A stretch of 64,000 bases of DNA from Giardia intestinalis (Eukaryota). Position numbers and translations under genes: made by a program. The notes beneath the pieces were generated by a model, which saw nothing but the letters and a program-made list of their open reading frames with translations, did no database searches and was not told the origin of the DNA. This document shows, piece by piece, positions 5,523-52,094 of the stretch (the first letter of the stretch is position 1; every line of letters starts with the position of its first letter). The stretch lies in the NCBI GenBank assembly GCA_000002435.2, contig CM018792.1; one strand, given 5' to 3'.

Positions 5523-5531
5523 ACCCATAAA

Positions 5532-5981
5532 ATGGCCGGGTCTCTGCTTCCCCGCAACTTCGGCGTCGCCGAGAACGGCGCGCGGGTGGTCGACTTCAGC
5601 TCGCAGTACCACCACAACTCGGGGGTCCAGAACCTTGTGCGCCAGGATCCCTCGGTCTGCTGGTTCACGTCGGTCTACGCGCCCCTCCCCCAGCACGTCG
5701 TCATCGACATGGGCCAGCCGGTCTGCCTCACGCGCGTGGGCATCTTCCTCCACGGTGAAAACAGCCAGAACCCCCGGCGCGTCTCCTTTGCGTGCGGGGC
5801 CGACCCTGCCTGCCCCGAGCCCCTCGCCGAGATGGACCTCCCGCACCGGGGCGGAGACCACCTGTGCACCCTTCCGTCCCCCCGCGTGGCGCGCTTCGTG
5901 CGCTACACGATCCTCGAGAACTTCGGGGGCTCGGGCGCCTACACGACCGGACTCCAGCTCTACGGGGTCCCCGCCCAGTAA
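5532..5981 (+). CDS. Small (149 aa) galactose-binding-like / F5-8 type C-like single-domain protein, possibly IFT25 (HSPB11)-like
   Basis: The ORF starts 9 nt after the Sec31 stop. It is non-repetitive despite the G+C-rich context. The pattern SSQYHHNSGVQNLV..DPSVCWFTS..PQHVVIDMGQPVCLTRVGIF resembles IFT25 (TSSDEKHPPENIIDGNPETFWTTTGMFPQEFIICF). The stop TAA lies within AGTAAAC. The function call is tentative. Confidence 0.5.
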   Translation: MAGSLLPRNFGVAENGARVVDFSSQYHHNSGVQNLVRQDPSVCWFTSVYAPLPQHVVIDMGQPVCLTRVGIFLHGENSQNPRRVSFACGADPACPEPLAEMDLPHRGGDHLCTLPSPRVARFVRYTILENFGGSGAYTTGLQLYGVPAQ

Positions 5982-5992
5982 ACGACGGTTTA

Positions 5993-8212
5993 CTACAGGT
6001 AGCTGAACCTCGCCGGCCCTGCGTGGGCCTCGCGGTCCAGCTCTCCGAGCCCCAGGTCTCCCCCGACCGCCGACCGCCCGAGGGAGCCGCTGCGGATGAG
6101 GTTCGACATCTCGTCGATGAGGTCTGGCATCGCAAAGTGCTGGGAGCCCCGCGGGCCTGCGTCGCCGTCCTCAAGCGCCTTACTGGACTCGGTGGCCTTC
6201 TTGAGCGTGTCGCTCAGACGCTTGTTGCAGATCCACATGTCGTCGATCAACATCGAAATCACGGAGTTGGCCTCGGTCACCTTGCGCGACTTGTCGAAGA
6301 GCCGCTCGCGCAGGGCCTCGACTTCTGCGCGAAGGTCTGCGTAGCGCTCGACCGTGATGCCCTCGGCCTCGAACTGCTCCATCGCCTCCTGCATCCCGAG
6401 AAGGTTGCGCTGCATCTCCTCCATCTCCTCGAGGAGCTTCTTTGCGTCCTCGTGCTCTGCGCTCAGGGCGTCGAGCTCGCGGCGCGTCTCGTCCAGCTCG
6501 CGCGCCGCGTTGCCTCCCGCGGCTTCGGCCCGGGCCAGCTCTCCCTCGAGCTCTTTGACGCGCTCCTGGGCCGTTATCAGCTGCCCCAGGACGGAGTCGT
6601 CGCTGTTCTGGAGGTCTGTGATGTGCTTCTCGAGCTCGCGGACGTGTGCATTCATGAGCTCGACCTCGCCCCGCGCGGCCTCGACTTCCTGGCGGGCGGC
6701 GGCCTTGACCTCCTCGACCTCCTCCTCCATCGCCTGGGTGTCGCGGACCTTCTCTGCATACCTCGCCTCTGCGGCGGCAACCTTCTTCTCGAGCTCGGAC
6801 ATGTCGTACAGATGGCCCTTCATCTCGCGAATCGCCGCCGCCTGCTCGTCCACCTTTGCACGAAGGTCATCGCGCTCCTGAGCCACGACCTGGAGCTCGA
6901 CCCGGAGCTTCTCAAGCTCGCGGATCGCATCTCCCTGGGAGAGGATGTCCTCGATCGCCTGGAAGAAGCTGTCCGAGTCACGCACGCCGAGGAGATCTGC
7001 AAGGCGCTGGATCGCCTCGGTAAGGGGCTTGTCGGTGACCAGGTTGAACTCCTCGCTCCGGCTGTCGAGGATGAGGGCGGTGACGATGCACGGCTCGACC
7101 TCGTCCTCGTAGACCTGCAGAATCTCCTGGCATTGCCGGTGGCCGTGCTGGACGGCGATGTCGTATGCAGACTGGCCTGCATCGTTCCGGAGCCCGTGCT
7201 CGAGGGGAGCGAGGAGCCCGACGATAGGCGCGTGGCCGGCCAGGGCTGCGTGCTGGAGCGCAGTGGCCTTCCCGGGGGAGTGGCCGAGAGGCGCCGTGCT
7301 CTGGAGGTTGGCCTCGAAGGGCGCGAGGGCCCCGACGATCTCGAGGAAGCCCCGGTGTGCGGCGAACATCATCGCAGTTGTTCCGGTCTTGTTGGGCTGG
7401 GCATTTTCGGCGTCGATGAGGTGCTTCACGCACGCGAGGTGGCCTGCGTCTGCTGCGAGGATCAGGGCGGTCGAGCCCTCGTGGTCGCCGCAGCTCGGGT
7501 TGTCGGGGATCGCCGCGCCGACGTCCTCGGGCGTCCTTTCAATCAGCACTCGGACGGCGTCTGCGCGCCCGAACTCTGCGGCAAGCATGAGGGGCGTCTT
7601 CCCCGACGCATCCCGTGTTCCGCGGTAGAGGTCGGCGAGGAGCGTTACCGAGACGGTGGGGTCTCGCGGAGAGAGGGCGGCATAGTGGAGGGGTGTGCGG
7701 CCCAGGCAGTCCCGGGTCTGGGCGCCTGCGGCCACGTGGGCCCTCAGGGCCGGCTCGTTCAGATCGAGGGCGGCGAGAAGGGGCTCGGCGAGGTACGGCC
7801 GCTCCTGGTCGAACGCCAGGAGTGCCTTCGTGGTCGAGAGGTGGCCGCGGGAGGCGGCGATCTCAATGGCCGTCGCACCAGCTGGGTACCCGAAGGCCGC
7901 GGCGGAAAGCTGCCTCCCAGCCTGGTAGGGCGCGAGGGCTGAGACCGCCGCATCGTGGCCGTGCATGGCCGCCGACATGAGGGCGGTCCAGCCTGTGTCG
8001 CTCCGGATGTCCTTCTCGTACGGGAGAAGGTACTTGACCGTGCCTGTGTGGCCGCCCTGGGCTGCAAGGTGTAGCGCCGTGAGCCCGGGCCCGTCCGGGA
8101 GCACGGCCCCCTGGTACTGCTTGCAATGGACAACGGTGAACTTGATCTCTCCGGACCGCGCCGCCTCAAACCAGGCGTCGAGGTTTCGCTTGTATTGCGA
8201 GTCGTCGGGCAT
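5993..8212 (-). CDS. Ankyrin-repeat + coiled-coil protein (Giardia Protein 21.1 family)
   Basis: The ORF-track start at 8242 is GTG. The first ATG lies 10 codons in (MPDDSQYKRNLDAWFEAARSGEIKF). At least 8 ankyrin repeats are visible (TALHLAAQGGHTGTVKYLL, TALMSAAMHGHDAAVSAL, TPLHYAALSPRD, TPLMLAAEFGRADAVRVLI, TALILAADAGHLACVKHLI, TAMMFAAHRGFLEIVGAL, TALQHAALAGHAPIVGLL). A ~300-aa Glu/Ala/Arg-rich coiled-coil tail follows. Confidence 0.8.
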   Translation of the reverse strand: MPDDSQYKRNLDAWFEAARSGEIKFTVVHCKQYQGAVLPDGPGLTALHLAAQGGHTGTVKYLLPYEKDIRSDTGWTALMSAAMHGHDAAVSALAPYQAGRQLSAAAFGYPAGATAIEIAASRGHLSTTKALLAFDQERPYLAEPLLAALDLNEPALRAHVAAGAQTRDCLGRTPLHYAALSPRDPTVSVTLLADLYRGTRDASGKTPLMLAAEFGRADAVRVLIERTPEDVGAAIPDNPSCGDHEGSTALILAADAGHLACVKHLIDAENAQPNKTGTTAMMFAAHRGFLEIVGALAPFEANLQSTAPLGHSPGKATALQHAALAGHAPIVGLLAPLEHGLRNDAGQSAYDIAVQHGHRQCQEILQVYEDEVEPCIVTALILDSRSEEFNLVTDKPLTEAIQRLADLLGVRDSDSFFQAIEDILSQGDAIRELEKLRVELQVVAQERDDLRAKVDEQAAAIREMKGHLYDMSELEKKVAAAEARYAEKVRDTQAMEEEVEEVKAAARQEVEAARGEVELMNAHVRELEKHITDLQNSDDSVLGQLITAQERVKELEGELARAEAAGGNAARELDETRRELDALSAEHEDAKKLLEEMEEMQRNLLGMQEAMEQFEAEGITVERYADLRAEVEALRERLFDKSRKVTEANSVISMLIDDMWICNKRLSDTLKKATESSKALEDGDAGPRGSQHFAMPDLIDEMSNLIRSGSLGRSAVGGDLGLGELDREAHAGPARFSYL

Positions 8213-8266
8213 CCAGGAATTTTGTGTTGGCTGCAATTTCACATGAACTTGCGATCGGAATTTACA

Positions 8267-9559
8267 ATGGACCCCGAGAGCACCCTGCTTGGCGCGGCAA
8301 TCCAGGAGCTCTGGGCCATCAGCCGCCGCCTCGACGAGCTCTCGGCTCGGAAGGCGCCTCTAATGACCGCGATTGCGGTGCGCGAACAGAGGCTCGCCGC
8401 CCTCGAGGTCGCTCTCGGGGCCCCCACGCCCCGTCACAGAGCAGCCCTTGTGACGCGCAGCAGCGCCGTGTCTCTTGAGCAGGCGACTGCAGCCCAGATC
8501 TACGCGGGCCAGCCGCCCCTTCTCTACCTCCAGGACCGCGAGTCGCACATAGGCTCAACTCGCATGGCCCCGCTCCCTACAGACCCGTGCGCCGCCTTCG
8601 CGAGCGAGGAGGCCTCCAGCTTCGTCGGCTTCGAGCCGGCCTATCCAACGAACATCGCAGGGATCGGCGGGGTCCTGGGGCCCCGCTCGGGCATTCCCCT
8701 ACGCCTCCGCCCCGTGAAGAACCGCTTTCGCGCAAACGACGACCTTGTCAAGGGCCTTCGGACGCTTTCGCCCGCAGACGCACAGGGCGCGCCCTACTTT
8801 TCCCGCCCAGTTGTCTCCCCGGACGACGAGCACGACGACGTGACGCACCTCCAGGCGGTCCAGAACGTCGGGCTCTACGCCGCAGCGCCCCTGCTCCCGC
8901 TGGCATCGGCGCCTGTCGGGCCTTCGAGGACACACGCCCGTCAGCGGCAGTTCAGCGTCGTTGGGGTCAGCAAGGCGGTCGAGGAGGCCTTCGAGTTTGC
9001 AAACATCGAGCGCCTGGTGGCAGACCTCAACGACGACGGGGTGCCGTCTGCGGTTGAGCCCTCCTCGGCCGCGCCTGTGCTTCCTCGGGCCCGCGGGTCG
9101 CTTGCGGGCAGAGGTGGGCGTGCGCCGGGGATCTGCCGCCTCTCCACGCACCGCGGAGTGCCCAGCCGCCCGGCCTCTGGGGGCTCTGCATTCGACGAGA
9201 CCCGTCGCATCGTCGGCGAGATGATGGCCGGCAGCGCCGCCCCCACGCTCGACCGTCTGCGCCGCGCATTTGCAGACCGAAACCTCCGACTGCGACGAGC
9301 GCTCGCCGCGCGCCTCGAGACCCAGGTGCTCTGCCTCCGCTGGCAGCGTCTGGAACGGCCCCTGAGTCGCCCGGTAGACAAGACCCTCGACCTCCTTTGC
9401 AAGCACCGGCTCAACAGCCTACCCGGCTTTGCCACGAGTAGTTTGCGCCTGATGAACCGAAGCAGGCGCCACGGAGTTGCGTGGGAGGGGTTTACACCGG
9501 TCACAGGCTCCTCCCCCGGCCCCGGAACTCCTCGGCAGGAGGCGGAAGTGTCTCTGTAG
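8267..9559 (+). CDS. Hypothetical protein (430 aa, G+C-rich, no recognised domain)
   Basis: In the ORF-track frame 8126-9559 I take the start as the ATG at 8267 (MDPESTLLGAAIQELW). It is preceded by aatttacaATG. The upstream in-frame part would overlap the divergent ankyrin gene. The sequence is non-repetitive, but the product is unassigned. Confidence 0.5.
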   Translation: MDPESTLLGAAIQELWAISRRLDELSARKAPLMTAIAVREQRLAALEVALGAPTPRHRAALVTRSSAVSLEQATAAQIYAGQPPLLYLQDRESHIGSTRMAPLPTDPCAAFASEEASSFVGFEPAYPTNIAGIGGVLGPRSGIPLRLRPVKNRFRANDDLVKGLRTLSPADAQGAPYFSRPVVSPDDEHDDVTHLQAVQNVGLYAAAPLLPLASAPVGPSRTHARQRQFSVVGVSKAVEEAFEFANIERLVADLNDDGVPSAVEPSSAAPVLPRARGSLAGRGGRAPGICRLSTHRGVPSRPASGGSAFDETRRIVGEMMAGSAAPTLDRLRRAFADRNLRLRRALAARLETQVLCLRWQRLERPLSRPVDKTLDLLCKHRLNSLPGFATSSLRLMNRSRRHGVAWEGFTPVTGSSPGPGTPRQEAEVSL

Positions 9560-10313
9560 GCCGGACGTCCTCGGGCCCGTCCTCGCTGGCCACGAGAGCC
9601 TCGTCCTCCGGGGACAAAGGCCTCCTGAAGGCTCTTCGCGGCAGGACATACGCTGCGACGACGCCCGAGAGCGTGTAGGGAACGCCCTCCCAGGGGGGAT
9701 AGAGCATCACCTGGGCCATGAGGACGGTGACGAGGATGACGCCCCACGCCGGGATGGGGCACCGGAAGCAGCAAGTGAACGACTTATGCCCGGACAGCCG
9801 GATCCCCATAATCGTCAGGAATACCAGCAGGGGTCCGGGCCCCATGTTCGCATTGCTTGTCCACTGGGCGGCGAAGTACGGGACGTCCCGGAGGCCGGGG
9901 GTGAGGGCGAGGAGGGCCGTGAGGGCCGACGTCAGAAGGGAGACGCAGGGGACCGCAAAGGCGAGGAGCCCGAGAAAAACCTTCCAGCCGACGGTCCGCT
10001 CCAGTAGGAACGCAGAGTTCCAGCCGATCAAGGCGAAGAGGGCTCCCTGGAAGACGGACTCCGGGAGAACAGGGGCGCTGACCAGCCGCCAGAGCTCCAG
10101 GTCCTTGTATGCACGCTCCATATTGATGGAGAGCCAGATTGCAGCCTGGAAGCCCCCCGCCAGCGAGGCCAGCGACAGGGAAAGGCCGGCGAGCAGCTCG
10201 AGGGCAAGAAGGCAGAGTGCACACCGGGGCATCGCGAGAAGCGCAGCTCCGAACCTGTGGCAGCATCCCGCTGGCCGTGCCGGGGGGTCGTCAGGTTGCA
10301 TGCCGGGGGGCAT
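9501..10313 (-). CDS. Multi-pass membrane protein (~5-6 TM helices); weak Derlin-like WRL motif after TM1 (speculative)
   Basis: The ORF-track start at 10316 is TTG. The ATG at 10313 gives MPPGMQPDD. Clear hydrophobic helices are present (LLAMPRCALCLLALELLAGLSLSLASLAGG, FLGLLAFAVPCVSLLTSALTALLAL, PLLVFLTIMGIRL, WGVILVTVLMAQVMLY). The motif LELWRLVSAPV is reminiscent of the Derlin QxWRLxTxF motif. The 3' end overlaps the convergent gene at 8267-9559 by ~59 nt. Confidence 0.5.
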   Translation of the reverse strand: MPPGMQPDDPPARPAGCCHRFGAALLAMPRCALCLLALELLAGLSLSLASLAGGFQAAIWLSINMERAYKDLELWRLVSAPVLPESVFQGALFALIGWNSAFLLERTVGWKVFLGLLAFAVPCVSLLTSALTALLALTPGLRDVPYFAAQWTSNANMGPGPLLVFLTIMGIRLSGHKSFTCCFRCPIPAWGVILVTVLMAQVMLYPPWEGVPYTLSGVVAAYVLPRRAFRRPLSPEDEALVASEDGPEDVRPTETLPPPAEEFRGRGRSL

Positions 10314-10324
10314 CAAAATTATAA
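10314..10324. promoter_or_regulatory. 11-nt A/T-only bidirectional initiator between divergent ATGs (CAT caaaattataa ATG)
   Basis: Read directly. It lies inside otherwise very G+C-rich DNA. Confidence 0.5.
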
Positions 10325-11665
10325 ATGCCTATCAGCGATGGCATCCCGACGGCCATCCTCACAGCCCACCGGGGACGCATTCGGGCGCTGCTTCTGACAC
10401 TCCACGGCCAGCTGGGCCTCCGGGAGGTTGTCTTTGCAGCCCTGGCCAACCTTTCCCTGCTCGAGCCCCCAGGGCCCGCTGCGGCACCCACGCCCCTCCC
10501 CGACTATGATTGCTGCGAGCTCTACCAGGTCGTCACCAGGTCTCGCCGTAACCTCCTCCAGTGGCTCCCCCCGCTCCACTTGACCCTTGAAGACCTCCGG
10601 CGTGTCCAGACGCGTGTCCGGGGCGACGCCGAGCTCCTCACGTTCTTCCTTGTTGTGAAGCAGCACGTCACCCGGCTCCGATACACCCACCCCCTGGCAC
10701 AGCCTGGAGGTCCCGGGCTGGCTGCCGCCCCCGAGGCAAGCGCCCGCTGTCGGGACATCGGGTACGCCGCAGCAGACCTCCGAGGGTCAACGCGCGCCAG
10801 TCTGGACCCCGCAGACCTTCTGGGCGGCCCCTTGGAGGACCCGGCGCTGGCTGTCTGCCGCACCCTCCGGGGCCTTCATCCGGCTCCCTGGGTCCTTCCC
10901 ATGGGCGTCCTTGCGCAGCACTACGGCACGTTTCTGCAGCGATCCGGGGTCCAGGGGCCGTTCTTTGTGCGCGTCGTCCAGATGCCCCCGATCACGCCCT
11001 CGGGTGGCCAGGAGTCTCGCCGGCTGTTTTCGCGCCGCCAGTTTCTTGAGGTCGGGCTGTACGTGCGGGCCGGAAGCACGCTCTACACGCTCCTCCTTCC
11101 TCTCGTGGCCGTCGGGCGCGCCCTCCATCACCTCGCCGTGGCCACTCGACTTGCCGCCCCCTGGCCGCTGCTCCTGTCTCCAGACCTGCTCCTGGCAGTC
11201 CGTGTCTCCCCCATCGGCTTCGCCGTCCACGTCCTCTCGACGTTCTGGACCGTCTGCGTCATCTACATCTTTCAGCTCGCGAGCGTTCCCAGCCTCGCCG
11301 CCCTGGCCGCCCTCTACTGGAAGACCTACGTCGTCACGTACGCCGCCAAGGCCCTCATCTACAGCACCGCGAACTTCCTGCCGCCCGCGCCAATCGTCGA
11401 GTTCATCAAGTCTGCAGACCCCGTGGGGGCCGAGGGCGTCCTCTACCACGCGTTCTTCGACGACTTCTTCCGCGAGGACTGCGAGCAGCGGGCCCATGGG
11501 GGCTACCGGAGGGTCGCGCAAGCCCCGGCTGTCTTCAAGCTCCTCGAGGAGGCGAACATCAATCTTCCGCAGCCCCAGGGGCCCCGCATGCACAGCGCCG
11601 CAAGGCTTGTGCTCCTGCTGTTGGCCACGCTGCTTCCAAGCTTCGACCCTCAGAGACGCTTCTAG
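10325..11665 (+). CDS. Hypothetical protein (446 aa) with hydrophobic C-terminal half
   Basis: The ATG sits in catcaaaattataaATG. This is an A/T-rich initiator shared head-to-head with the gene at 9501-10313. The sequence is non-repetitive. Hydrophobic segments are visible (LYTLLLPLVAVGRALHHLAV, FAVHVLSTFWTVCVIYIFQLASVPSLAALAALYW). The stop lies 7 nt before the next ATG. Confidence 0.55.
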   Translation: MPISDGIPTAILTAHRGRIRALLLTLHGQLGLREVVFAALANLSLLEPPGPAAAPTPLPDYDCCELYQVVTRSRRNLLQWLPPLHLTLEDLRRVQTRVRGDAELLTFFLVVKQHVTRLRYTHPLAQPGGPGLAAAPEASARCRDIGYAAADLRGSTRASLDPADLLGGPLEDPALAVCRTLRGLHPAPWVLPMGVLAQHYGTFLQRSGVQGPFFVRVVQMPPITPSGGQESRRLFSRRQFLEVGLYVRAGSTLYTLLLPLVAVGRALHHLAVATRLAAPWPLLLSPDLLLAVRVSPIGFAVHVLSTFWTVCVIYIFQLASVPSLAALAALYWKTYVVTYAAKALIYSTANFLPPAPIVEFIKSADPVGAEGVLYHAFFDDFFREDCEQRAHGGYRRVAQAPAVFKLLEEANINLPQPQGPRMHSAARLVLLLLATLLPSFDPQRRF

Positions 11666-11672
11666 TCAAAAA

Positions 11673-12623
11673 ATGGAAGAGGTCGTCATTGCCACGGGGA
11701 GCTACGACGGGTCGATCAAGCTCTGGCGGCCGACCTCTGAAAGTGCGCTCCGCACGCTGAACTTCGGAAAGGTCGCCAACGGGCTGGCCCTCAGCGCGGA
11801 CCGGAAAGTCCTGCTTGCAGCCGGGTTCTCCGCCACGACCGTTTATGACCTCGGCTCTGCCGGGCGGGACCCAGTCGCCGCCTTCGACGGACACCTCTCC
11901 AACGTCACAGGATGCTGCTTTCTCCAGGGCGACTCGACCGTCGCCAGCGTGGGCGAGGACGGACGCCTTCTGCTCTTCGACACCCGCGGGGGGAAGCAGA
12001 CTAGCTGCATCGTCCACGACGCGGCCCTCAACACGCTCTCTGTCGCGTGCGACCGGGGGGATGCGGCGCTCCTCGTCACGGGAGATCAGGAGGGTCGCCT
12101 GCTTGCGTACGATCTGCGCCAGCCCCGGCACCCCTTCGCAACGACGGTCGCGTTCGAGTGCGACGTCGGCGTCCGTTCGGTCAGCTGCGCCCCGGGGGCT
12201 CAAATCCTCGCGTGCTCTGACGGGCGGGGCATCGTCCGCGTCTACGCCTACAAGGGCAGCAGCCACTTCTTCGCGCCTCAGCAGTCCATCCAGGCGCACT
12301 TGGATGCCGTGATGCACGTCAACCTCTCTCCGGACGGGGCCGTCCTGGCGACGTGCAGCGCCGACAAGACTTGCAAGATCTGGTCCGTTGCTCTTGAGGA
12401 GGACTGCTATCTGACGCGCGCCCGCGTGCTGGGGACAAACGAGGCCACGGTCTGGGCGAGCGCCTTTAGTGCGGACTCGGCGTGCATCATCACGGCCGCA
12501 GACAAGAGCGCGAAGCTCTGGAACATCGCGGGCGACCCGACCGACAAGTATGTCTACGCCTACAACGGGCACTCGCACACCGTGACGACGGTGGTTCTCG
12601 GAGACGTCCGCCTTCCCCTGTGA
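11673..12623 (+). CDS. LST8: LST8 (G-beta-like, TOR complex subunit), 316-aa seven-WD40 protein
   Basis: The ORF-track ORF 10911-12623 carries a spurious Ser/Pro/Arg-rich N-extension overlapping the upstream gene. The real start is aaaaaATGgaagag ([18 protein letters not shown]). It aligns by eye with human MLST8 along its length. Examples: VILATAGYDHTVRFW; LATCSADQTCKIW against [37 protein letters not shown] against [31 protein letters not shown] against YNGHSHTV. Confidence 0.8.
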   Translation: [316 protein letters not shown]

Positions 12624-12657
12624 TTCCCTGCGCCGTTCCCTGCGCGCCTGCAAAAAG

Positions 12658-13842
12658 ATGCTCTATAGCGCTTCAGATGTCGAACGCGTTCCTACGGACT
12701 CCCGAATCTGCGTCCTCCTGACCACCCTCTTTACCGTCCCTCCCGGCGGCGATCCTGCCGAGCCGAGCCAGCGGTGCCCGCGCAAGACGTTTATCTCGGC
12801 GATCCTCGAGGGCTCTGGCCGCGGGCTGCAGGGCTCCTGGGAGGAGGTCGCAGAGCCCGTCTGCCTGCTCGAGGCGTACGATCCCGCCCTGCCCTACGCG
12901 ATCCGGGTCGCAGCGGGCGCCGGCCGGGTCGCCCGGGACCCGACGCTCCCTGCCTCGCACTACCTCTATGCCGCACACAAGCAGGGCCTCTCCGTGGGCT
13001 GCCCACACTATGTCCGGGGCTGCCTCCTCTACTGCGCAGTCTGCGGAGAGCGCTCTCCATGCCGCTTCTGCCACGATGCCTCCCACGACGACCACGAGTT
13101 CCCGCGGACCCGCACGGCAGAGGTCTTCTGTCTCTTCTGCCGCGCCACCGGCCCCATCGGGCTCCGCTGCACACACTGCCAGATGCCCTTCGGGACGCGC
13201 TACTGCGAGACGTGTCGCCTCATCTGCGGAATGGGCCGCGAGGGGCGTCCGAGCTTCCACTGCGCCCGCTGCGGGACGTGCCGGCAGGGCCTTCCGGGGT
13301 ACTCGGAGCACTGCGAGCGTTGCGGGACATGCCACACAGTCGCCCTTGGCCAGGTTCACGCGTGCGCGCCGGACCCCGGGAACTGCGTCTACTGCCTCGA
13401 CGGCCTCCGGGACAACATCTACCCGTACATCGTCCTTCCCTGCGGGCGCCACTCGTGCCACCGCCACTGCTACGAGGCCGTCTTTCGCCTGGGTGGGGCG
13501 AACTACAAGTGCCCGGTCTGCCGCCGGCTCGTCCTCTTCGGGCAGGACAGGGAGCTCTACGAGGCGCGCCTGGAGGAGCTCCGGGGATCGCTTGCGGTCC
13601 CGCCCGAGTACCGGGGCGTCTTCGTCGACTGCGCATGCCACGAGTGCGGCGGGCTCTTTGTCGCCCGGCGCCACCACCTCTACCGCTGCCCGGGCTGTGG
13701 CTCCCACAACGCCGCCGAGCGCGGGCTCTTCAGAGGCGCCGCCGCAGACGCGCGCCGCGCAATCGCGCTCCAGGCCCGCTCCGGGGCGTTTACTAGAACA
13801 GGGCGTCAAGGGCCGCCTCCAGCTGGGCCCCAAACTGGGTAA
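12658..13842 (+). CDS. RCHY1: CHY zinc-finger + CTCHY + RING-H2 + C-terminal zinc-ribbon E3 ubiquitin ligase (Pirh2/RCHY1 type)
   Basis: Motif order: GCPHYVRGCLLYCAVCGERSPCRFCHD..H (CHY finger); CLFCRATGPIGLRCTHCQMPFGTRYCETCRL..FHCARCGTCR..EHCERCGTCH (CTCHY); CVYCLDGL..PYIVLPCGRHSCHRHCYEAVF..YKCPVCRR (RING-H2); CHECGGLFVARRHHLYRCPGCGSHN (zinc ribbon). The ATG is preceded by tgcaaaaag. Confidence 0.8.
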   Translation: MLYSASDVERVPTDSRICVLLTTLFTVPPGGDPAEPSQRCPRKTFISAILEGSGRGLQGSWEEVAEPVCLLEAYDPALPYAIRVAAGAGRVARDPTLPASHYLYAAHKQGLSVGCPHYVRGCLLYCAVCGERSPCRFCHDASHDDHEFPRTRTAEVFCLFCRATGPIGLRCTHCQMPFGTRYCETCRLICGMGREGRPSFHCARCGTCRQGLPGYSEHCERCGTCHTVALGQVHACAPDPGNCVYCLDGLRDNIYPYIVLPCGRHSCHRHCYEAVFRLGGANYKCPVCRRLVLFGQDRELYEARLEELRGSLAVPPEYRGVFVDCACHECGGLFVARRHHLYRCPGCGSHNAAERGLFRGAAADARRAIALQARSGAFTRTGRQGPPPAGPQTG

Positions 13843-16270
13843 GCCGGTGGCTAGGCTCATCACAAAACCCTTTTGGTACTTCACTTTCTGCAAGTATCAC
13901 TTGCCCTGGTGCAGAGGTTTCCGTAGACCCTAAGAGAGACCAGGTATTGTTGAAGGCTTGTGGTTGCTCTTCTATGCAAGGCTCTCTCTTTGTGTGTCCA
14001 CCTAATGCACGAATCATTTGTCTGCCACTGGCCCGTGTGCTTATTAGTGCATACACCTGCCCGTCAGGGCTACAATCTACCCCGCATACTCTATCTCGCT
14101 TATGCCGTTTTTCAAAAATGACTACCTTTTCTTCTATTGCACCGTTCGCTAGCTTAAAAAGCATGCCCTTATCATCACCAATTCCAAAGACATAATGACG
14201 ATCGTTACTGTCAGGATGCGGAGATAGACAAACTTGGTGTATTATTGGCAGGCTGATACTTAGAGGCCGCTTCCTATTAGAATCCTGCTTCTTTGTAGAG
14301 ATACTTGAGTCCCTAATAAACTTATAGTAAAATATTCCTGCTGGGCTGGTGATGCAGACAGAGGTATCACCGACGGCACACATAGTTCTTCGGGTTCGGT
14401 AAGATGAACTCTTTCCTCTAGTCGCTAATAGGTCGAACCTCTCCAGCACCTTGATGCTCACGGGAAAAGGGTGACCATTCTCACTCTTTTCTGAACCGGA
14501 GTAAATAATCTCATAGACGCGCAGCTCCAAGTGGTGCTTATCAAGCTCTGCGTCCCCGAGTACTGCACAGAAATAATGGCCATTTCTAGAAACTCCAGCT
14601 GCTTCCACCCATATGGGAATATCCCCAAGACCATCGCAGATGTCCCAATTAAATACCTCGACAATGCCTGCGTCGGTGAACGTGAAGACCTTAGCCTCTA
14701 GCTGGCTAACAGTTAAAAACAAATCGCAATTAGGAACAGACAACAGAGGAGCCAGCAACTTCACAGACGTGCTGTGCGGCCGAAAAATTTGGGCGAGACA
14801 GATGGAATCGTCAAAACGGCCAGTAGCACGATAAGCATAGAGCACCTCCTCTTGGTGAACATTGTGCGTCAGTTTTAGTCCTGTAACAGCAAGCAACAAA
14901 GATCCGTTAGCCAGCGCAGCGAAGTGAAGGATATGCGGAGGATCCGAGATTTCACATCGAGAATAGACTTTGTTTCGTTGTATAATAGTCACTATATCAG
15001 TTGAGTTCGTGGGTAGCAAAGCAGAACTTGGTATATTTTCTACCCCGTGGAAAAGCTGGATGTCTCCTGGAGACCCATCAGCTAGTATGCTGAGCTGGTC
15101 GTTCTCGCCATATAAGAAGATTCCTGGAGTATCCTTTGGTGTGTAACGCAAATTTCTAGCTGGAGAGACTAACCCATGCCTCTGAGCCATAATGACACCA
15201 GCAGCGGTATCTATCAAATACATTGTGTTGGTTGCTGTAACTACGCACGCCGTCTGGGAGTAGGTAAGAGAGGTTGGAGAGAAGATTGACGGACAAGGGC
15301 ACGAGATGTACCGTACCGGTCCAACCACAGCCGGTCCAAATTGCGGAGTATAATCAAGAAGCGAAAGATTGACCACGATTGTTTCCTCTCCTCCCAGTAG
15401 GACCTTAGGAGTGGCAGTGGTGGCATGAGCAACAGCCAACGCACTGATCCCATTTTTATTCCAATGGAACCGAACATGCTTTGATTGAGCAACAGTGGTT
15501 CCTATTGGTATGCCTTCAAAGCGGTACAGAGCCCCGCGAAGATCACCCATCAAGAATCCATAGGAGGTGCGATGGTTAAACGCAACCAACTGAGTAATAC
15601 AGGCGTCATGAGACATTGTGGAATAGTTATCTGGAAGCCTTCGTGGGGAGTCGGGCCTAGAATGCGGAAATCTGGCAAAGAAAAGCGTACAATCAATAGC
15701 TATATAAATGACGTCATCTGAAATGATTAGTCGACTGCTCGTCCGCTGCAAAGTAAGTTGGTCGGGAGTGACAGGCGGGGGATTCAAACAGACTACATCA
15801 GATAGGTCAAAGACGGCCTTACGCGGGTTGTTGGCTGCAGCCGAGAGACTGTACAAGATGAGAAAATGGGTTCTGTTCTTCGCTGCTTTGGCTTCCAGTA
15901 AGAAGACAAACTGATCAGATCCATCACACTGTGCACACGCAACAAATTCTGGCTCGTGCTGCAAAATGGATCCGTCCTTAGTCTTTTTGGGCCCCTTGTC
16001 CTCTGGTAAGGAGACTTCAAGCGAGAAGTCCCCCGTCCGTGTATTGTAAATAGAGAATCGATGCTTCGAGAGGATGAGAAGCTGTGAATCTGATGCGCGT
16101 AGGAACAAGAGTTGGACTATCCGCCGTTTATGTGTTGGTACTACCTTCAAGAGAGCAAGTGTCACTGGAGACAGTGCAATTATGGAGTCTCCGGTGGCAG
16201 AATAGATTGCGCTACCATCTGGAGCAAATGCAGGAGGGCAGGACGCCATAAAGCCACCGAATGCATCCAT
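13793..16270 (-). CDS. WD40/beta-propeller protein (825 aa), possibly t-UTP UTP17/WDR75-like nucleolar SSU-processome component
   Basis: ATG MDAFGGFMAS. The N-terminus pattern GGFMASCPPAFAPDGSAIYSATGDSIIALS resembles WDR75 (GGSELNFRRAVFSADSKYIFCVSGDFVKVYS). Multiple WD-like blades run through the protein. The 3' end overlaps the convergent RCHY1-like gene by ~50 nt. The stop TAG is embedded in AGTAAAC on the minus strand. Function is low confidence. Confidence 0.7.
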   Translation of the reverse strand: MDAFGGFMASCPPAFAPDGSAIYSATGDSIIALSPVTLALLKVVPTHKRRIVQLLFLRASDSQLLILSKHRFSIYNTRTGDFSLEVSLPEDKGPKKTKDGSILQHEPEFVACAQCDGSDQFVFLLEAKAAKNRTHFLILYSLSAAANNPRKAVFDLSDVVCLNPPPVTPDQLTLQRTSSRLIISDDVIYIAIDCTLFFARFPHSRPDSPRRLPDNYSTMSHDACITQLVAFNHRTSYGFLMGDLRGALYRFEGIPIGTTVAQSKHVRFHWNKNGISALAVAHATTATPKVLLGGEETIVVNLSLLDYTPQFGPAVVGPVRYISCPCPSIFSPTSLTYSQTACVVTATNTMYLIDTAAGVIMAQRHGLVSPARNLRYTPKDTPGIFLYGENDQLSILADGSPGDIQLFHGVENIPSSALLPTNSTDIVTIIQRNKVYSRCEISDPPHILHFAALANGSLLLAVTGLKLTHNVHQEEVLYAYRATGRFDDSICLAQIFRPHSTSVKLLAPLLSVPNCDLFLTVSQLEAKVFTFTDAGIVEVFNWDICDGLGDIPIWVEAAGVSRNGHYFCAVLGDAELDKHHLELRVYEIIYSGSEKSENGHPFPVSIKVLERFDLLATRGKSSSYRTRRTMCAVGDTSVCITSPAGIFYYKFIRDSSISTKKQDSNRKRPLSISLPIIHQVCLSPHPDSNDRHYVFGIGDDKGMLFKLANGAIEEKVVIFEKRHKRDRVCGVDCSPDGQVYALISTRASGRQMIRALGGHTKREPCIEEQPQAFNNTWSLLGSTETSAPGQVILAESEVPKGFCDEPSHRLTQFGAQLEAALDALF

Positions 16271-20329: not shown

Positions 20330-20630
20330 GAAAATTATGGCTACTCATTTAAAAGTATGCAGCACTCACAGAGAGATGCATGCTAAGTCCTATACGACCG
20401 TGTGTGAACAAGTGCACTCCTCTGCAAGCATCACACGATAAAGACTTTGCAAAATAGTTTGCACAACTGCTCTCTTGACGCCGAAGCACGAGCTGGAGCT
20501 GCGAGTGCTGCACAGAGATTCCCCTGGGAGATACCCTCTCGCCTTGAGGGCAGAACCTCAAGACGCGCTACCGCCGGCGGAACCCTTTTTTGCGCGCAAA
20601 AATTTGAGCCCAAGTTAAGAAAATAAAAGG

Positions 20631-21449
20631 ATGTCTATGTTCACCTCCACCCGTACGCTCACCCAGACGATGGACAAGCCCGACGACCTCACCCGCAGTG
20701 CGACCGAGACGGCGGTCAAGCTCAGCAACATGAACCAGCGCGTCAGCAGGTTCCACGACAAGATGGAGAACGAGATCGAGGTCCGCCGCGTCGACGACGA
20801 CACGCGCGTGAAGATGATCAAGGACGCCATCGCACACCTCGACAGGCTCATCCAGACGGAGTCGAGGAAGCGCCAGGCCTCGTTCGAGGACATCCGCGAG
20901 GAGGTCAAGAAGTCCGCCGACAACATGTACCTAACGATCAAGGAGGAGATCGACACCATGGCTGCAAACTTCCGCAAGTCCCTTGCGGAGATGGGCGACA
21001 CACTCAACAACGTTGAGACAAATCTCCAGAACCAGATCGCCATCCATAACGACGCCATCGCGGCTCTCAGGAAGGAGGCCCTCAAGAGCCTGAACGATCT
21101 CGAGACGGGCATTGCCACGGAGAACGCAGAAAGGAAGAAGATGTACGACCAGCTCAACGAGAAGGTCGCAGAGGGCTTCGCCCGCATCTCCGCCGCGATC
21201 GAGAAGGAGACGATCGCCCGCGAGAGGGCCGTTAGCGCTGCCACGACAGAAGCGCTCACAAACACGAAGCTCGTCGAGAAGTGCGTCAACGAGCAGCTCG
21301 AGAACGTCGCCTCGGAGATCCGCGCTATCCAGGAGGAGATCGACCGCGAGAAGGCCGAACGCAAGGAGGCAGAGGACAAGATCGTCAACACTCTCGAGGA
21401 CGTCGTCTCGAAGATCCAGGGCGGCCTCTCGATGGTCACAAAGCACTAA
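20631..21449 (+). CDS. bg: Beta-giardin (SF-assemblin family striated-fibre / ventral-disc protein)
   Basis: The translation MSMFTSTRTLTQTMDKPDDLTRSATETAVKLSNMNQRVSRFHDKMENEIEVRRVDDD...IQGGLSMVTKH matches Giardia beta-giardin as I remember it. The classical 259-aa form starts at the internal ATG at 20670 (MDKPDD). The A/T-rich initiator gttaagaaaataaaaggATG supports 20631 as the first codon. A poly(A) signal AGTAAAT lies 9 nt after the stop. Confidence 0.95.
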   Translation: MSMFTSTRTLTQTMDKPDDLTRSATETAVKLSNMNQRVSRFHDKMENEIEVRRVDDDTRVKMIKDAIAHLDRLIQTESRKRQASFEDIREEVKKSADNMYLTIKEEIDTMAANFRKSLAEMGDTLNNVETNLQNQIAIHNDAIAALRKEALKSLNDLETGIATENAERKKMYDQLNEKVAEGFARISAAIEKETIARERAVSAATTEALTNTKLVEKCVNEQLENVASEIRAIQEEIDREKAERKEAEDKIVNTLEDVVSKIQGGLSMVTKH

Positions 21450-21457
21450 GCGCCTGC

Positions 21458-21472
21458 AGTAAATCATTTACT
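21458..21472. terminator. Perfect palindrome AGTAAAT-C-ATTTACT: poly(A) signals for both convergent genes
   Basis: The Giardia poly(A) consensus AGTRAAY reads AGTAAAT on the plus strand 9 nt after the beta-giardin stop. On the minus strand it reads AGTAAAT overlapping the RING-gene TAA stop. Confidence 0.55.
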
Positions 21473-23915
21473 TAGGGAGTCCGACTACCTCGCCGCCGCA
21501 CCGCATCTGCACCACGGGCTGTCTGCAGAGCGCACACCGTCCGGATCGGAGCACGAGGCGTGCGGCGCACTCTGCGCAGAAGTAGTGGTTGCAGTTGAGC
21601 ACCACGATTGCCGCGCGGCAGAGCGCTCTGAGGCAGACTGCGCAGACCTCCTCATCTGCGTCTCCGTCAGAGGCGCTTTCCGACCCCTGCACCATGTCGG
21701 GGTGTGTCGAAGACTCTCTCTCGGTGTCTTCCTGCCGTCCTCGGGGCTCGATGACCATCTCCTTTGCTATGGACCCATCAAACTGGGCATAGGTCCAGGA
21801 CACCCGTTCCGTAGCCAACGTAGTAATGGCCTCAGTTTCCCTTGCAACGGCCCTGGATCCGAGGCGCCAGGATTCAAAGGGAGCATTCTGATCGGAATAG
21901 TAGTCTGTGTTGGTGTAGTCACACTGTTCAGGCCTAAACATAAAGTGTTCTGTGCTCTTGTCAGCCAATTCATCGAGCGTTGCTTTCTTGAAGATAGAGT
22001 AGAAATTAAGACTTTTCAGCGACTCCGGTGGATGCGTAATAAGTGAGGCATAATATGTCATGTACCGTAGCGCAGCAAACGCAGCCACCTGGTGATTTTG
22101 AACACTAAATTCCTTGTTGTCCAATACCCGATAGGCGTAAATTGCGAGGATATGTTTGAGGGAGTTGAGAAAGTGCTCGCCGTGTGACAAAGGTTTATAC
22201 TCATTGAACAGAATGTACGCCACCAGAGGCGAATACCCTGGTCCCAAATTTGGGCAGTTTGTTTGAAGCCACTGTGCAGCAGCCCCAGTAAGTTCCTCTT
22301 CGTGTACAGCAGGACCAGCATGGGAAAGAAGTAGGAGGAGCAAATTTGCCCTCTGGCCAATGCCCTTTGCAACCAATTCGGCACAGCCTTGATAGATATG
22401 CAAGAGCCTCTCATCAATGGTGGATTTGCTCAGTTCAATTTCAAGGACTTTGGCACAGGTGTCAACAAACATGAAAAGATGCGGAAGACAGTTGATGCGT
22501 TGTAGCTTTGCAGTTGCTAGGGTTGCAATAAGCGCATCTGGACCCTCCACATATGATTCGGCCAATCCGTCTGCAAGATGGGAGAGAAATGATCTGCATA
22601 TTTGCTTGTTTGTGGGGAACGCTGCTATGGGGTATGCAATCGCCTCAGAAAGCTCCTTGATTTCAAAGCTGCGCATTACAACCTCGTCAAAAAATTCTGC
22701 TGGCCGACAGTGTTCGTTTTCGTATGCAATCTGATAGCACAAGAGATAAATATGCACAAGGTCGGACTCACTAGGGTTTGAGAAATCAATTTCGTGATGT
22801 AAAGGATGAAGGTCGAGACGTGAGATGGCTTCTCTTGCAACTAGACCAGAGTCTAGGATAAGGTGCCGGCCAATATTTGATATGTGCGTAAGGATGTCGT
22901 TCGACACCATCTTATTGAAATGCAGATATGAACAGGCTCGGTAGAACTGAGCCATGACCCCCGTTTGATAAGGGTAGCCATTTAGGCCCATATCTAGGGC
23001 AAGATTAGCAAAGAAGCTGTACAGCACAGTCGAGTACAGAGACGATAGAAAGGTCACTGCGAGCTGAATTTGTTTCTCGTGGTATGCCACCAGACCTGAT
23101 ATTTTATGCTGTACAAACGCCACCTCAAGGGCAGTCCTAGTTGGAGGCATGGGTGACATGAGAAAGCAGTGCATGAAAGAAAAAAGAGCCAAATACCATG
23201 CATAGGGTGTGTGTGTGACGACGATCTCACTCAGAATTCCTGCCAGCTCTGCTGCATCTTCATTTGTATAGTTCTTTAGCGGCAGTAGGTCATCCAAATC
23301 AAAAGTGCGGGATGTTAAAAGCATAAGAGCCTTGTAGATAGCCGTGTTTTCACTAGAGGGAGCTTCGGGAACAAAGGCTATCAAGTGGCCCAATAGTTCT
23401 ACAGAGAGCTGCTTGTTGTACGCGTGGCATACAATAAGCTTCTTGTAAATAGGTATGGTTGTATAGATACCAACACGCCCTGTGCGTGCGGTTTGAGCCT
23501 CCTTGGAGTCAGAGGCCGTGCCTGTGGCGAGCACAACAGAAAGGACAAACTCATAAATGAAGAGGGTCTCCTCTATCGGGCCCTCGCTAGAGCCTGGCTT
23601 TGGAGGAATGTCGGTACTTACTTCTTGCAACGATAGAATCAAATGCGTCCCGCGAATAATAGAACATTTGTCTTGCTGCAAGAGCATGAGCCCACTAGCA
23701 ATAACATCACTATCTATATAAACAAAAGGGTCGTGCAGGTACATCTGCAGGTCTCCAAGAACAAACACATGAAAGCTGTTTCCTGGCGTTAAGACGACTG
23801 CCTCGGAGAGAAGACTCAGAGTCTTATCCGAAACTATGTACGCGTTCCTCTGGACTCGGCTCGCACGGTGTAGCATGCCAGAAAGAGAAGTGATGTCCAA
23901 AGGTCTTCTGAGCAT
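21468..23915 (-). CDS. Large RING-finger (C3HC4) protein, probable E3 ubiquitin ligase (815 aa)
   Basis: C-terminal RING: CAVCLRALCRAAIVVLNCNHYFCAECAARLVLRSGRCALCRQPV. The ATG is preceded by cttcaaagtaaATG. The stop TAA overlaps AGTAAAT on the minus strand. Confidence 0.75.
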   Translation of the reverse strand: MLRRPLDITSLSGMLHRASRVQRNAYIVSDKTLSLLSEAVVLTPGNSFHVFVLGDLQMYLHDPFVYIDSDVIASGLMLLQQDKCSIIRGTHLILSLQEVSTDIPPKPGSSEGPIEETLFIYEFVLSVVLATGTASDSKEAQTARTGRVGIYTTIPIYKKLIVCHAYNKQLSVELLGHLIAFVPEAPSSENTAIYKALMLLTSRTFDLDDLLPLKNYTNEDAAELAGILSEIVVTHTPYAWYLALFSFMHCFLMSPMPPTRTALEVAFVQHKISGLVAYHEKQIQLAVTFLSSLYSTVLYSFFANLALDMGLNGYPYQTGVMAQFYRACSYLHFNKMVSNDILTHISNIGRHLILDSGLVAREAISRLDLHPLHHEIDFSNPSESDLVHIYLLCYQIAYENEHCRPAEFFDEVVMRSFEIKELSEAIAYPIAAFPTNKQICRSFLSHLADGLAESYVEGPDALIATLATAKLQRINCLPHLFMFVDTCAKVLEIELSKSTIDERLLHIYQGCAELVAKGIGQRANLLLLLLSHAGPAVHEEELTGAAAQWLQTNCPNLGPGYSPLVAYILFNEYKPLSHGEHFLNSLKHILAIYAYRVLDNKEFSVQNHQVAAFAALRYMTYYASLITHPPESLKSLNFYSIFKKATLDELADKSTEHFMFRPEQCDYTNTDYYSDQNAPFESWRLGSRAVARETEAITTLATERVSWTYAQFDGSIAKEMVIEPRGRQEDTERESSTHPDMVQGSESASDGDADEEVCAVCLRALCRAAIVVLNCNHYFCAECAARLVLRSGRCALCRQPVVQMRCGGEVVGLPK

Positions 23916-34177: not shown

Positions 34178-35002
34178 ATGTCTGCAGACAGCTCGGGCGC
34201 AAGGATCGCGCTATTCACGGATACACACCTCGGGTTCACTGCCCCGTCTGCACGCCCCTGCAATGCCCACGAAAACTACCTGCTTCTTGAGGAGTGCCTC
34301 TGTCTGGCCCGCAAGCTGGGCGCGCATGCTATCCTGCACGCCGGAGACTTCTTCAACCAGAACAGGCTGTCCAGCAAGAAGGTCATCAAGGCAATCTGTG
34401 CACTGAGACGATACGGGGTCTCGTCCTTTGCAGGCCACAGCGACGGCGACTCGATACCCATGGCCCTCATCTACGGCAACCACGACAACAACGATAAGAT
34501 TTTGGGCCTCCTGGAGGCGGCCGGGGCGGTGAGTCTCCTGGGGCACACTCAGGCCGGCAAAAGCCTTACGCTCCATCCTTTCTGCCGGGTAGTTGGCGGT
34601 GTAGAGCTCGTCGTGTACGGACTGGATTACCACAAAGCGTGGCAGAGGGATGTGGCACCCGAGATTTCCTTTGCCCCGGCCGCTCGCTCAGCTCTGAAGG
34701 ACGAAGCGGTGGGGAGAGGCGCTAAAGGAGGACGCAGGCACGCACGATACACCTTCCTGGTTCTTCACCAAGACTATTCAGACCAGGTTGGAAGAGACAA
34801 GATCAGCCTTTCATTCGTCGACCAGTGGAATCATACGCATGCCCCGGAAGAGCGCATAGACTTTGTGTACATAGGGCACGAGCACGACGAGACGCCTCCT
34901 CGCGACGGGGAGACGTTCACGCTTCTCATGCCCGGCTCTCCGCATAGACAAAGCAGGAAGAGAAGCCTTCCCGACTTATACTTGCTGTCTCTGCCTCTAT
35001 AG
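34178..35002 (+). CDS. Mre11-type calcineurin-like phosphoesterase, nuclease core only (274 aa); lacks capping and Rad50-binding regions
   Basis: The phosphoesterase motifs are in Mre11 order and spacing. [11 protein letters not shown] (I, against ILVATDIHLGF). [12 protein letters not shown] (II, against GGDLFHENKPS), within a block [20 protein letters not shown] ~ [27 protein letters not shown] (III). LVLHQD (IV). IGHEHDE (V/VI). LLMPGSP ~ YISQPGSS. The ORF stops 10 codons later. No continuing frame exists downstream. Confidence 0.7.
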   Translation: [274 protein letters not shown]

Positions 35003-38889: not shown

Positions 38890-38904
38890 TCCACTATCAT
38901 CTTA

Positions 38905-46252: not shown

Positions 46253-46254
46253 TA

Positions 46255-52084: not shown

Positions 52085-52094
52085 AAACATGGCC

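Follow-up and report, generated by a model that had tools for sequence, protein, structure and literature searches.

Opposed poly(A) signals as the probable basis of a palindrome between the convergent beta-giardin and RING-finger genes of Giardia intestinalis

Gene pair and palindrome

The window, i.e. the whole stretch of 64,000 nucleotides analysed here, comes from Giardia intestinalis WB. It contains the gene for beta-giardin and the gene for a RING-finger protein, which are convergent and whose stop codons are 18 nt apart (gap 21450–21467). The palindrome AGTAAATCATTTACT was located at 21458–21472 by direct reading, a pattern search and an inverted-repeat scan. It comprises 15 bases, with two arms of 7 nt that are 100% complementary and 1 nt (C, 21465) between the arms. 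In shuffled sequences, 0.07 occurrences of this 15-mer are expected when up to two mismatches are allowed. The features of the locus, and a second site of the same kind, are as follows.

20631..21449, plus strand: beta-giardin coding sequence (GL50803_4812); ORF list, Pfam, exact match to XP_001705425
21458..21464, plus strand: poly(A) signal AGTAAAT of beta-giardin; begins 9 nt past the stop codon and matches AGURAA(Y) exactly
21471..21472, plus strand: beta-giardin cleavage/polyadenylation site; published UTRs of 22 and 23 nt (WB), converted to window coordinates here
21468..23915, minus strand: gene for a RING-finger protein of 815 aa (XP_001705422), convergent with beta-giardin; ORF list, Pfam, protein match
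21468..21470, minus strand: RING stop codon TAA; direct reading, ORF list
21466..21472, minus strand: putative poly(A) signal AGTAAAT of the RING gene, dual-use with the stop (AAG TAA AT); sequence match
21456..21459, minus strand: predicted cleavage site of the RING mRNA, 13–16 nt from the first A; distance rule and 11-nt median UTR
5977..5994, both strands: second face-to-face pair, AGTAAAC-gacg-GTTTACT; pattern search, simulations

The beta-giardin ORF ends with TAA at 21447–21449 (plus strand), carries the SF-assemblin/beta-giardin domain (PF06705, E=1e-106) and is identical to the protein of Giardia WB. In the convergent gene, the RING finger is C-terminal (PF13920 and PF13639, both above the cut-offs).

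A preliminary description of this DNA had reported AGTAAAT on both strands of the palindrome, within an 18-nt gap, and direct reading confirmed this. The reported overlap with the RING stop was also correct: the TAA (21470..21468) lies inside the AGTAAAT at 21472..21466, which reads CCT AAG TAA AT. The poly(A) signal of Giardia is AGURAA(Y) (Peattie 1989, Yee & Dennis 1992, Que 1996, as cited in PMC9014877), written WGURAA in a 2024 Genome Research paper (PMC11529991), and both arms match it exactly. Whenever one 7-mer occurs on either strand at a distance of a few bases, an inverted repeat results, and this accounts for the symmetry. The 'perfect palindrome' thus means merely that both genes use the same variant of the 7-mer, AGTAAAT.

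Signals and stop codons across the window

Of the 36 long ORFs, 7 had an AGTRAA motif starting between −2 and +25 relative to the stop, compared with a background of 1.5% (p=1e-6). In sense coding sequence, the motif was rarer (0.18 per kb) than in the window overall (0.54 per kb). Enrichment at stops and depletion in ORFs are as reported genome-wide. Apart from the RING stop, five long-ORF stops overlapped a signal in the window (5518; 13788, 27331, 31375 and 5988, all on the minus strand), as did the stops of two shorter ORFs (5977 and, on the minus strand, 60444). Three of these sites had been cited beforehand as stops embedded in the motif, and the sequence bears this out: AG-TAA-AC is present at 5518–5524 and 5977–5983 (plus strand), and the minus-strand stop cited near 13793 reads T-AG-TAAAC (13795..13788), where the stop is TAG and overlaps the motif by 2 nt.

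Face-to-face AGTRAAY pairs not more than 12 nt apart occurred twice in the window. The expectation from 300 Markov-1 simulations was 0.04, and none of the 300 reached two pairs. A chance origin of the palindrome and of the signal pairs was ruled out by the shuffles, the Markov-1 simulations and the stop-enrichment test. The second pair (5977–5994) lies between a convergent F5/8-type-C gene, whose stop is inside the plus-strand signal, and an ankyrin-repeat gene, whose TAG overlaps the minus-strand signal. Assemblages A, B and E share it without any change, and its counterpart in G. muris is AGTAAA-aatc-TTTACT. The beta-giardin/RING junction had been singled out as a compact solution for two 3' ends; since the window holds another face-to-face pair at a distance of 15 kb, this junction is no special case. 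At other convergent pairs, the signal was located within the coding sequence of the partner, e.g. for 46255–47715 (minus strand), with AGTAAAC 36 nt past the stop.

The 3' end of beta-giardin

The beta-giardin 3' UTR was published as 23 nt (Bilodeau et al. 2022, Table S1, PMC9014877) and as 22, 22, 21 and 21 nt in WB, AS175, P15 and GS, respectively (Franzen et al. 2013, supplementary file 3, PMC3610916). For WB, UTRs of 22–23 nt put cleavage 13–14 nt past the first A of the plus-strand signal, which corresponds to the distal end of the palindrome. Poly(A)-site mapping had been proposed as a check, and for beta-giardin it is thus answered by two published data sets. Taking all published UTR lengths from the four isolates, the last templated base is 12–14 nt past the first A. 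This fits the modal distance in Giardia, where signal and cleavage site are mostly 13–15 nt apart and where AGUAAA precedes 45% and AGUGAA 15% of the validated cleavage sites (Bilodeau 2022, PMC9014877). According to the published UTR data, the plus-strand AGTAAAT is used for 3'-end formation of beta-giardin. The mRNA ends 4–5 nt into the RING coding sequence, i.e. opposite its last two codons.

The 3' end of the RING gene

[quoted passage not shown] 2014 and 2020; PMC11529991); in this class, a NAG codon and the UAA or UGA stop behind it together make up AGURAA. Dual-use NAG-UAA stops were found in ~15% of Giardia genes, and the median length of their UTRs was 11 nt (Bilodeau 2022, PMC9014877). 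The RING gene ends in the same way, with AAG-UAA-A, and its stop occupies positions 3–5 of AGUAAA; as a member of this class, it would be expected to have a UTR of ~11 nt. From its sequence, the minus-strand AGTAAAT is most likely a dual-use stop and poly(A) signal for the RING mRNA. The predicted RING end is just short of the beta-giardin stop, so that the mature mRNAs would overlap by ~15 nt, roughly the palindrome.

A different reading is that only the plus-strand copy is functional. The minus-strand AGTAAAT would then be a passive mirror or a codon coincidence (AAG-TAA), and RING transcripts would end distally, in or beyond antisense beta-giardin. A validated RING cleavage site was not found in the parts of the published tables that were covered: the position-ordered 'Singles' table (Bilodeau 2022) has the order GL50803_41569, 4812, 14493, with no RING 3'-end entry between GL50803_4812 and GL50803_14493, the latter being an Mre11-like gene placed at 34178–35002 of the window. 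A literature search for A8BR45 and XP_001705422 found no mention. Two Logan contigs extend beyond the RING stop, by 56 and 91 nt, and end inside beta-giardin; these are contig breaks with no poly(A) tail. Distal ends would also agree with the literature, in which Giardia 3' UTRs of several hundred nt are frequent and antisense poly(A) clusters are common. However, a mirror of the plus-strand signal would sit on top of it, and the minus-strand copy is on other bases (21466–21472 versus 21458–64); hence, it is an independent sequence. Moreover, AG-UAA stops are over-represented genome-wide and accompany the 11-nt UTRs (Bilodeau 2022, PMC9014877), and the minus strand has no further AGTRAAY downstream of 21466 until 16951. 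Together with the conservation of the minus-strand heptamer (see the following subsection), this makes a functional plus-strand copy alone an improbable explanation.

Conservation among Giardia lineages

The junction was compared in assemblages A (A1, A2), E and B and in two further lineages, ERR3333381 and ERR3333383 (project PRJEB32663). The RING proteins of the latter two were 75–78% identical to those of A, B and E and 83% identical to each other; plausibly, they represent the dog assemblages C and D.

The plus-strand heptamer was invariant in the five G. duodenalis lineages while its flanks varied, and the spacer between the beta-giardin stop and the signal was 7, 8, 12 or 14 nt. The minus-strand heptamer was AGTAAAT in four lineages (A1/A2, E and the two further ones) and AGTGAAC in B, so AGTRAAY fits in all five. 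The changes in B are confined to the degenerate R and Y sites of the consensus and cost two of the seven complementary pairs. The spacer between the arms was 1 or 2 nt: the exact palindrome was present in A1, A2 and E, and in the two further lineages the arms were intact with a spacer of 2 nt. The RING stop shifts around the minus-strand heptamer. It is a TAA inside the heptamer in A and a TGA after the hexamer in E and in the two further lineages, and there is none in B. The heptamer has thus stayed within AGTRAAY in five lineages although the stop moves around it, which argues against a minus-strand copy without function.

In G. muris, the synteny of beta-giardin and RING was kept, and an AGTGAAT starts 14 nt after the beta-giardin stop. 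The junction of this gene pair had no palindrome, and no WGURAA was recognisable after the RING stop. Conservation across isolates had been proposed as a further check. Both signals were kept in the five G. duodenalis lineages, while the palindrome as such was broken in B and absent in G. muris. In these sequence comparisons, conservation tracks the signals rather than the pairing.

The RING ORF of assemblage B

In assemblage B, a T-to-C change at the Y position removes the RING stop (AGT AAA TGA to AGT GAA CGA). The stop is lost because this base is common to the stop codon and to the degenerate position of the signal. The RING ORF of B has 1110 aa in at least 13 assemblies (at least 13 of 15 cluster members from other assemblies, among the matches listed). 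A 454 sequencing error was rejected as the source of the long ORF in isolate GS, since these other assemblies have the same length of 1110 aa and an independent Illumina-derived contig has an identical junction. The B ORF runs on for 295 codons past the site, and this is in favour of distal RING ends with only the plus-strand copy in use.

Folding of the palindrome

According to the preliminary description, the palindrome would form a hairpin in either read-through transcript. The stem consists of six mostly A-U pairs, and the 15-mer folds with −1.0 kcal/mol. Taken alone, it folded better than shuffled versions of itself (z=−6.9 and −4.1), but in its native context of 43–51 nt it did no better than shuffles (z +0.04 to +1.2). 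The plus-strand RNA of assemblage B does not fold (0 kcal/mol), while its minus-strand RNA retains a stem of 6 bp thanks to a G-U pair (−1.5 kcal/mol). Compensatory changes were not observed, as B alters one arm at two positions and leaves the other arm unchanged; with one informative lineage only, this is a weak test. No Rfam match at E≤1 was found in 21300–21650. The hairpin claim was not upheld, and a hairpin function was rejected on the basis of the fold energy and the assemblage B sequence.

The broader view that the palindrome itself is functional includes an RNA hairpin, a DNA cruciform or a site for a dimeric factor, acting as a bidirectional terminator or a stability element. The folding of the isolated 15-mer, the surviving stem on the B minus strand and the intact arms in A1, A2, E and the two further lineages speak for it. 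Set against this are the weak stem, the z values in context, the unfolded plus strand of B, the lack of an Rfam match and the G. muris gene pair without a palindrome. In addition, the substitutions in the arm were confined to the degenerate R and Y positions and were uncompensated, and a cruciform would need arms longer than 7 nt for stable extrusion. We regard a function of the palindrome as a unit as very improbable.

Discussion

The palindrome very probably consists of two independent, opposed and ordinary AGURAA(Y) poly(A) signals, one for each convergent gene. On the plus strand, the AGUAAAU 9 nt past the beta-giardin stop directs cleavage 13–14 nt downstream, at ~21471–21472, as the published data show. 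On the minus strand, the AGUAAAU containing the RING UAA would lead to a 3' UTR of ~10–13 nt ending near 21456–21459. Selection would act on each signal and on genome compactness, and the symmetry would have no function of its own. Two findings stand against this explanation: the RING ORF of assemblage B has no stop at the heptamer site, and no WGURAA can be recognised past the RING stop of G. muris. Without a RING stop in B, the simple picture of a stop plus a signal cannot hold unchanged there.

The palindrome is known Giardia biology, with all ingredients published, and no new element. Compared with the Giardia signal in general, there is no difference in kind; the available parts of the published work treat the signal gene by gene and do not remark on opposed pairs. 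Overlapping transcripts are likewise common, as 81% of the tail-to-tail WB gene pairs with mapped 3' UTRs have them (Franzen 2013, PMC3610916). The beta-giardin end inside the RING coding sequence is of this kind, and the predicted overlap is minimal, as the gap accommodates both signals.

Similar arrangements are known from other systems. The SV40 early/late poly(A) region has opposed hexamers for convergent units in one short segment, and the mRNA 3' ends overlap. SV40 uses AAUAAA and downstream auxiliary elements over roughly 100–200 bp. In contrast, only 1 nt separates the hexamers in Giardia, from which the known auxiliary poly(A) elements are described as absent. Bacterial bidirectional intrinsic terminators share the inverted repeat in a short gap between convergent genes. 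However, their active element is a stable G+C-rich hairpin, while the Giardia stem is A/U-rich and its pairing is not conserved. The mechanism in Giardia is motif-directed cleavage and polyadenylation, unlike that of the bacterial hairpin terminators.

It is possible, though unlikely, that the face-to-face pair is more than passive packing, either as a bidirectional 3'-end module or through a RING stop completed by polyadenylation in assemblage B. For the former, the complement of each signal, UUUACU, may supply the U-rich context of the partner's cleavage site, and pairs 1–4 nt apart may be a selected module. For the latter, the poly(A) tail may complete the RING stop codon of B. If the RNA were cut 13 or 14 nt past the first A of AGUGAA, it would end in ...AUU U or ...AUU UA, and the added A would give UAA. 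RING 3' ends in B would then read ...AGUGAACGAAUUU(A), followed by poly(A). Stop codons created by polyadenylation have been described in Blastocystis (PMC4159000). Otherwise, B would have either a non-stop RING mRNA or a protein of 1110 aa whose tail of 295 residues is read from antisense beta-giardin.

The locus is a textbook-like illustration of the compactness of the Giardia genome, with two 3'-end signals, one stop and one cleavage site in 15 bases. The AGURAA signal, dual-use stop codons and overlapping convergent transcripts have already been published, and the symmetry adds no information to them. For annotators and motif finders, this means that AGTRAAY/RTTYACT inverted repeats are to be expected between convergent Giardia genes and should not be taken for hairpins. 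The RING ortholog of assemblage B is the one lead of possible importance. If the poly(A) tail restores its stop, polyadenylation-dependent termination codons would extend to nuclear genes of diplomonads, and the junction would be a case of direct evolutionary conflict between two overlapping codes.

Gene pair and palindrome in the window

The window derives from isolate WB (assemblage A1). Beta-giardin and a RING-finger gene are convergent here, with 18 nt between their stops.

Features at the beta-giardin/RING junction
20631-21449, plus strand: beta-giardin, identical to XP_001705425 / GL50803_4812 (Pfam SF-assemblin/beta-giardin, E=1e-106)
21458-21472: palindrome, 7-nt arms, 100% complementary, 1-nt spacer (pattern search and inverted-repeat scan)
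21470..21468, minus strand: RING stop TAA, inside the minus-strand AGTAAAT at 21472..21466
21468-23915, minus strand: RING-finger gene, 815 aa, identical to XP_001705422 'Ring finger domain-containing protein'

XP_001705422 carries a C-terminal RING finger (PF13920 and PF13639, each over its Pfam cut-off). Direct reading of the intergenic stretch gave TAA gcgcctgc AGTAAAT c ATTTACT TAgggag. The preliminary description had reported a palindrome in this gap, a minus-strand signal overlapping the RING TAA and further overlaps of stops and motifs in the window. The palindrome and the stop spacing were recovered, the overlap was read directly as CCT AAG TAA AT, and all the other overlaps were correct.

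Two ORFs run antisense to beta-giardin on the minus strand, at 20615-21439 (274 aa) and 20931-21467 (178 aa). Most likely both arise incidentally from the codon composition of the coiled-coil gene. The reading frame of the second is the one joined to the RING ORF in assemblage B.

Chance expectation and other convergent gaps

The 15-mer was unique in the window (0.07 expected from shuffles with up to two mismatches). AGTRAAY followed by its own reverse complement within 12 nt occurred twice in 64 kb (5977-5994 and 21458-21472), with 0.04 expected; none of 300 first-order Markov simulations reached two. No back-to-back pair was found in the 64-kb window. Both face-to-face pairs sit exactly between the stops of convergent genes. 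Of 36 long non-overlapping ORFs, 7 had an AGTRAA start at -2 to +25 nt relative to the stop, compared with 1.5% of random positions (p=1e-6), and sense coding sequence contained AGTRAA at one-third of the density of the whole window. About one-third to one-half of the stop-proximal signals in the window use the same signal variant. The palindrome is more than chance, and the reason is ordinary.

Second face-to-face pair
5977-5994: AGTAAAC-gacg-GTTTACT, between a convergent F5/8-type-C gene (stop inside the plus signal) and an ankyrin-repeat gene (TAG overlapping the minus signal)

The sequence of this pair does not differ between assemblages A, B and E, and the corresponding junction in G. muris reads AGTAAA-aatc-TTTACT (L022:1046-1061). 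Elsewhere in the window, convergent genes 2-15 nt apart carry the signal within the coding sequence of the partner; the AGTAAAC of ORF 46255-47715 (minus strand) lies 36 nt past the stop in this way. Several gaps of 2-15 nt (46252-46257, 38889-38905 and 52084-52095) contained no signal, and some of the smaller ORFs there may not be real genes.

Poly(A) signals and 3' ends

In Giardia, AGURAA is established as the polyadenylation signal, and Bilodeau et al. 2022 (PMC9014877) validated 2764 cleavage sites. The same study showed that NAG-UAA serves as both stop codon and poly(A) signal (dual use) in about 15% of genes, whose 3' UTRs have a median length of 11 nt. PMC11529991 added G. lamblia B and G. 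muris as further cases of dual use, which PMC7641422 also remarked for G. muris. Among 1,097 tail-to-tail pairs of WB genes whose 3' UTRs had been mapped, Franzen et al. 2013 (PMC3610916) reported transcript overlap for 81%.

For GL50803_4812, one validated site with a 3' UTR of 23 nt is given in Table S1 of Bilodeau et al. 2022 (PMC9014877). The Franzen ortholog table (PMC3610916) gives 22, 22, 21 and 21 nt in WB, AS175, P15 and GS. Counted from the UTR start at 21450, the mRNA ends at 21471-21472, i.e. 13-14 nt past the first A of the plus-strand AGTAAAT and 4-5 nt into the RING coding sequence. In the mature mRNA, the poly(A) tail is therefore preceded by the palindrome in virtually its full length. 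The 1-nt UTR differences between isolates track 1-nt indels in the spacer.

The preliminary description had assigned signals to both strands and proposed poly(A)-site mapping as a check. The plus copy stands, as the published UTRs of 21-23 nt fit it; use of the minus copy is suggested by the NAG-UAA class. Next to 4812, the available part of the position-ordered list of Bilodeau et al. 2022 (PMC9014877) has no RING entry (order verified with GL50803_5258, the 106-aa ORF 60446-60766, and the Mre11-like gene 34178-35002). Assembled contigs ending near the RING stop are genomic. Since no RING 3'-end data were found in the accessible parts of the two published tables, we infer use of the minus signal from the class rule. 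The RING mRNA would then end near 21456-21459, and the two mRNAs would overlap by about 15 nt. The minus copy is probably the main RING 3'-end signal. An unused minus copy, with a RING transcript that reads through, is improbable.

Other observations in the window

Tandem plus-strand genes at 2448-5522 and 5532-5981 are 9 nt apart. The dual-use AGTAAAC at 5518 predicts cleavage at ~5531-5533, on the next gene's ATG, so the promoter of the downstream gene would have to be inside the upstream coding sequence. G+C was ~67% at ~8000-14000 vs 45-56% elsewhere in the window; ORFs 9501-10313 (minus strand) and 10325-11665 (plus strand) had no Pfam match. The metallophosphatase ORF at 34178-35002 (plus strand, 274 aa) is taken to be GL50803_14493 'Mre11, putative'; 274 aa is short for Mre11. 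The 529- and 641-aa ORFs next on the same strand had no Pfam hits.

Conservation across lineages

The junction was compared in seven G. duodenalis sequences from five lineages and in G. muris. RING proteins differ by 10-25% between lineages.

Junction by lineage
A1 and A2: AGTAAAT-c-ATTTACT, identical; RING ends AAG TAA, stop within signal
E (P15): same 15-mer, 1-nt deletion each side; RING ends AGT AAA TGA
ERR3333383 and ERR3333381 (two further lineages, probably dog assemblages): AGTAAAT-tc-ATTTACT, 12-14 nt from beta-giardin stop to plus signal; RING ends AGT AAA TGA
B (GS and an independent Illumina assembly): AGTAAAT-tc-GTTCACT, minus signal AGTGAAC; no RING stop here
G. muris (L014:3817-3840): syntenic pair, 5 nt between stops, no palindrome; RING TAA

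Conservation of the palindrome was partial: A1, A2 and E keep the 15-mer, and neither heptamer departs from AGTRAAY in any G. duodenalis lineage compared, but the arms mismatch in B and the palindrome is absent from G. muris. Spacers, stop position and arm complementarity vary. Arm substitutions fall only on two degenerate consensus positions and are uncompensated, which is the pattern of two sequence signals and not of a pairing element. Past the G. muris RING stop no recognisable WGURAA was found (nearest GGUAAAG). In G. muris the beta-giardin signal, AGTGAAT, falls within the RING gene's coding sequence, and its complement there codes for Phe-Thr.

The RING stop is shifted while the signal is fixed (window 21466-21476 vs L003, L016 and L017, from E and the two further lineages). 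The assemblage A protein ends GLPK, with TAA inside the signal; that of E and the two further lineages ends GLPSK, with TGA directly after the hexamer. The shift is due to a 1-nt indel, ACTTAGGG vs ACTTGGG.

In B, the ortholog reads ...GGA CTC CCA AGT GAA CGA ATT TAC TGC... (L002:3828-3850 in GS; L015, SRR21529646); the corresponding codons are AGT AAA TGA in E and the two further lineages. The substitution of C for T that converts TGA to CGA falls on the Y position of the heptamer, where it is tolerated in the signal and fatal for the stop. The ORF gains 295 codons antisense across the whole of beta-giardin and reaches 1110 aa. The same length recurs in independent Logan and ENA assemblies, in at least 13 of the 15 cluster members listed, so a GS sequencing error was rejected as the source of the long ORF.

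The poly(A) tail might complete a RING UAA in B (AUU UA/C). With cleavage at the usual distance, an mRNA whose templated part stops 12 or 13 nt past the first A would have ...AUU U or ...AUU UA before the tail, and the tail would make UAA. An end at 15 or 16 would give UAA or UGA, and one at 14 or 17 a non-stop mRNA. Nuclear stop codons created by polyadenylation are described in Blastocystis (PMC4159000); no Giardia report was found in the literature searched.

Folding and interpretation of the palindrome

The proposed hairpin found no support. The fold of the 15-mer has a 3-nt loop and a stem of six pairs, mostly A-U (-1.0 kcal/mol), and for native stretches of 43-51 nt around it the predicted energies were no better than those of shuffles (z +0.04 to +1.2). 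In assemblage B, the plus strand gave 0 kcal/mol and the minus strand -1.5 kcal/mol via a G-U pair. Rfam had no match at the junction. A structural role is unsupported, and it is highly improbable that the palindrome itself is a functional element.

Two opposed ordinary poly(A) signals very likely explain the palindrome. The plus signal and its cleavage site are shown by the published UTR lengths, and the minus signal would act as stop plus poly(A) signal. The special meaning given to the symmetry was not borne out: palindromy would be a by-product, as two opposed copies of one 7-mer always form an inverted repeat. The biology of the palindrome is already known, and the recurrence at 5977-5994 means that face-to-face signal pairs are a recurrent outcome of tight convergent packing.
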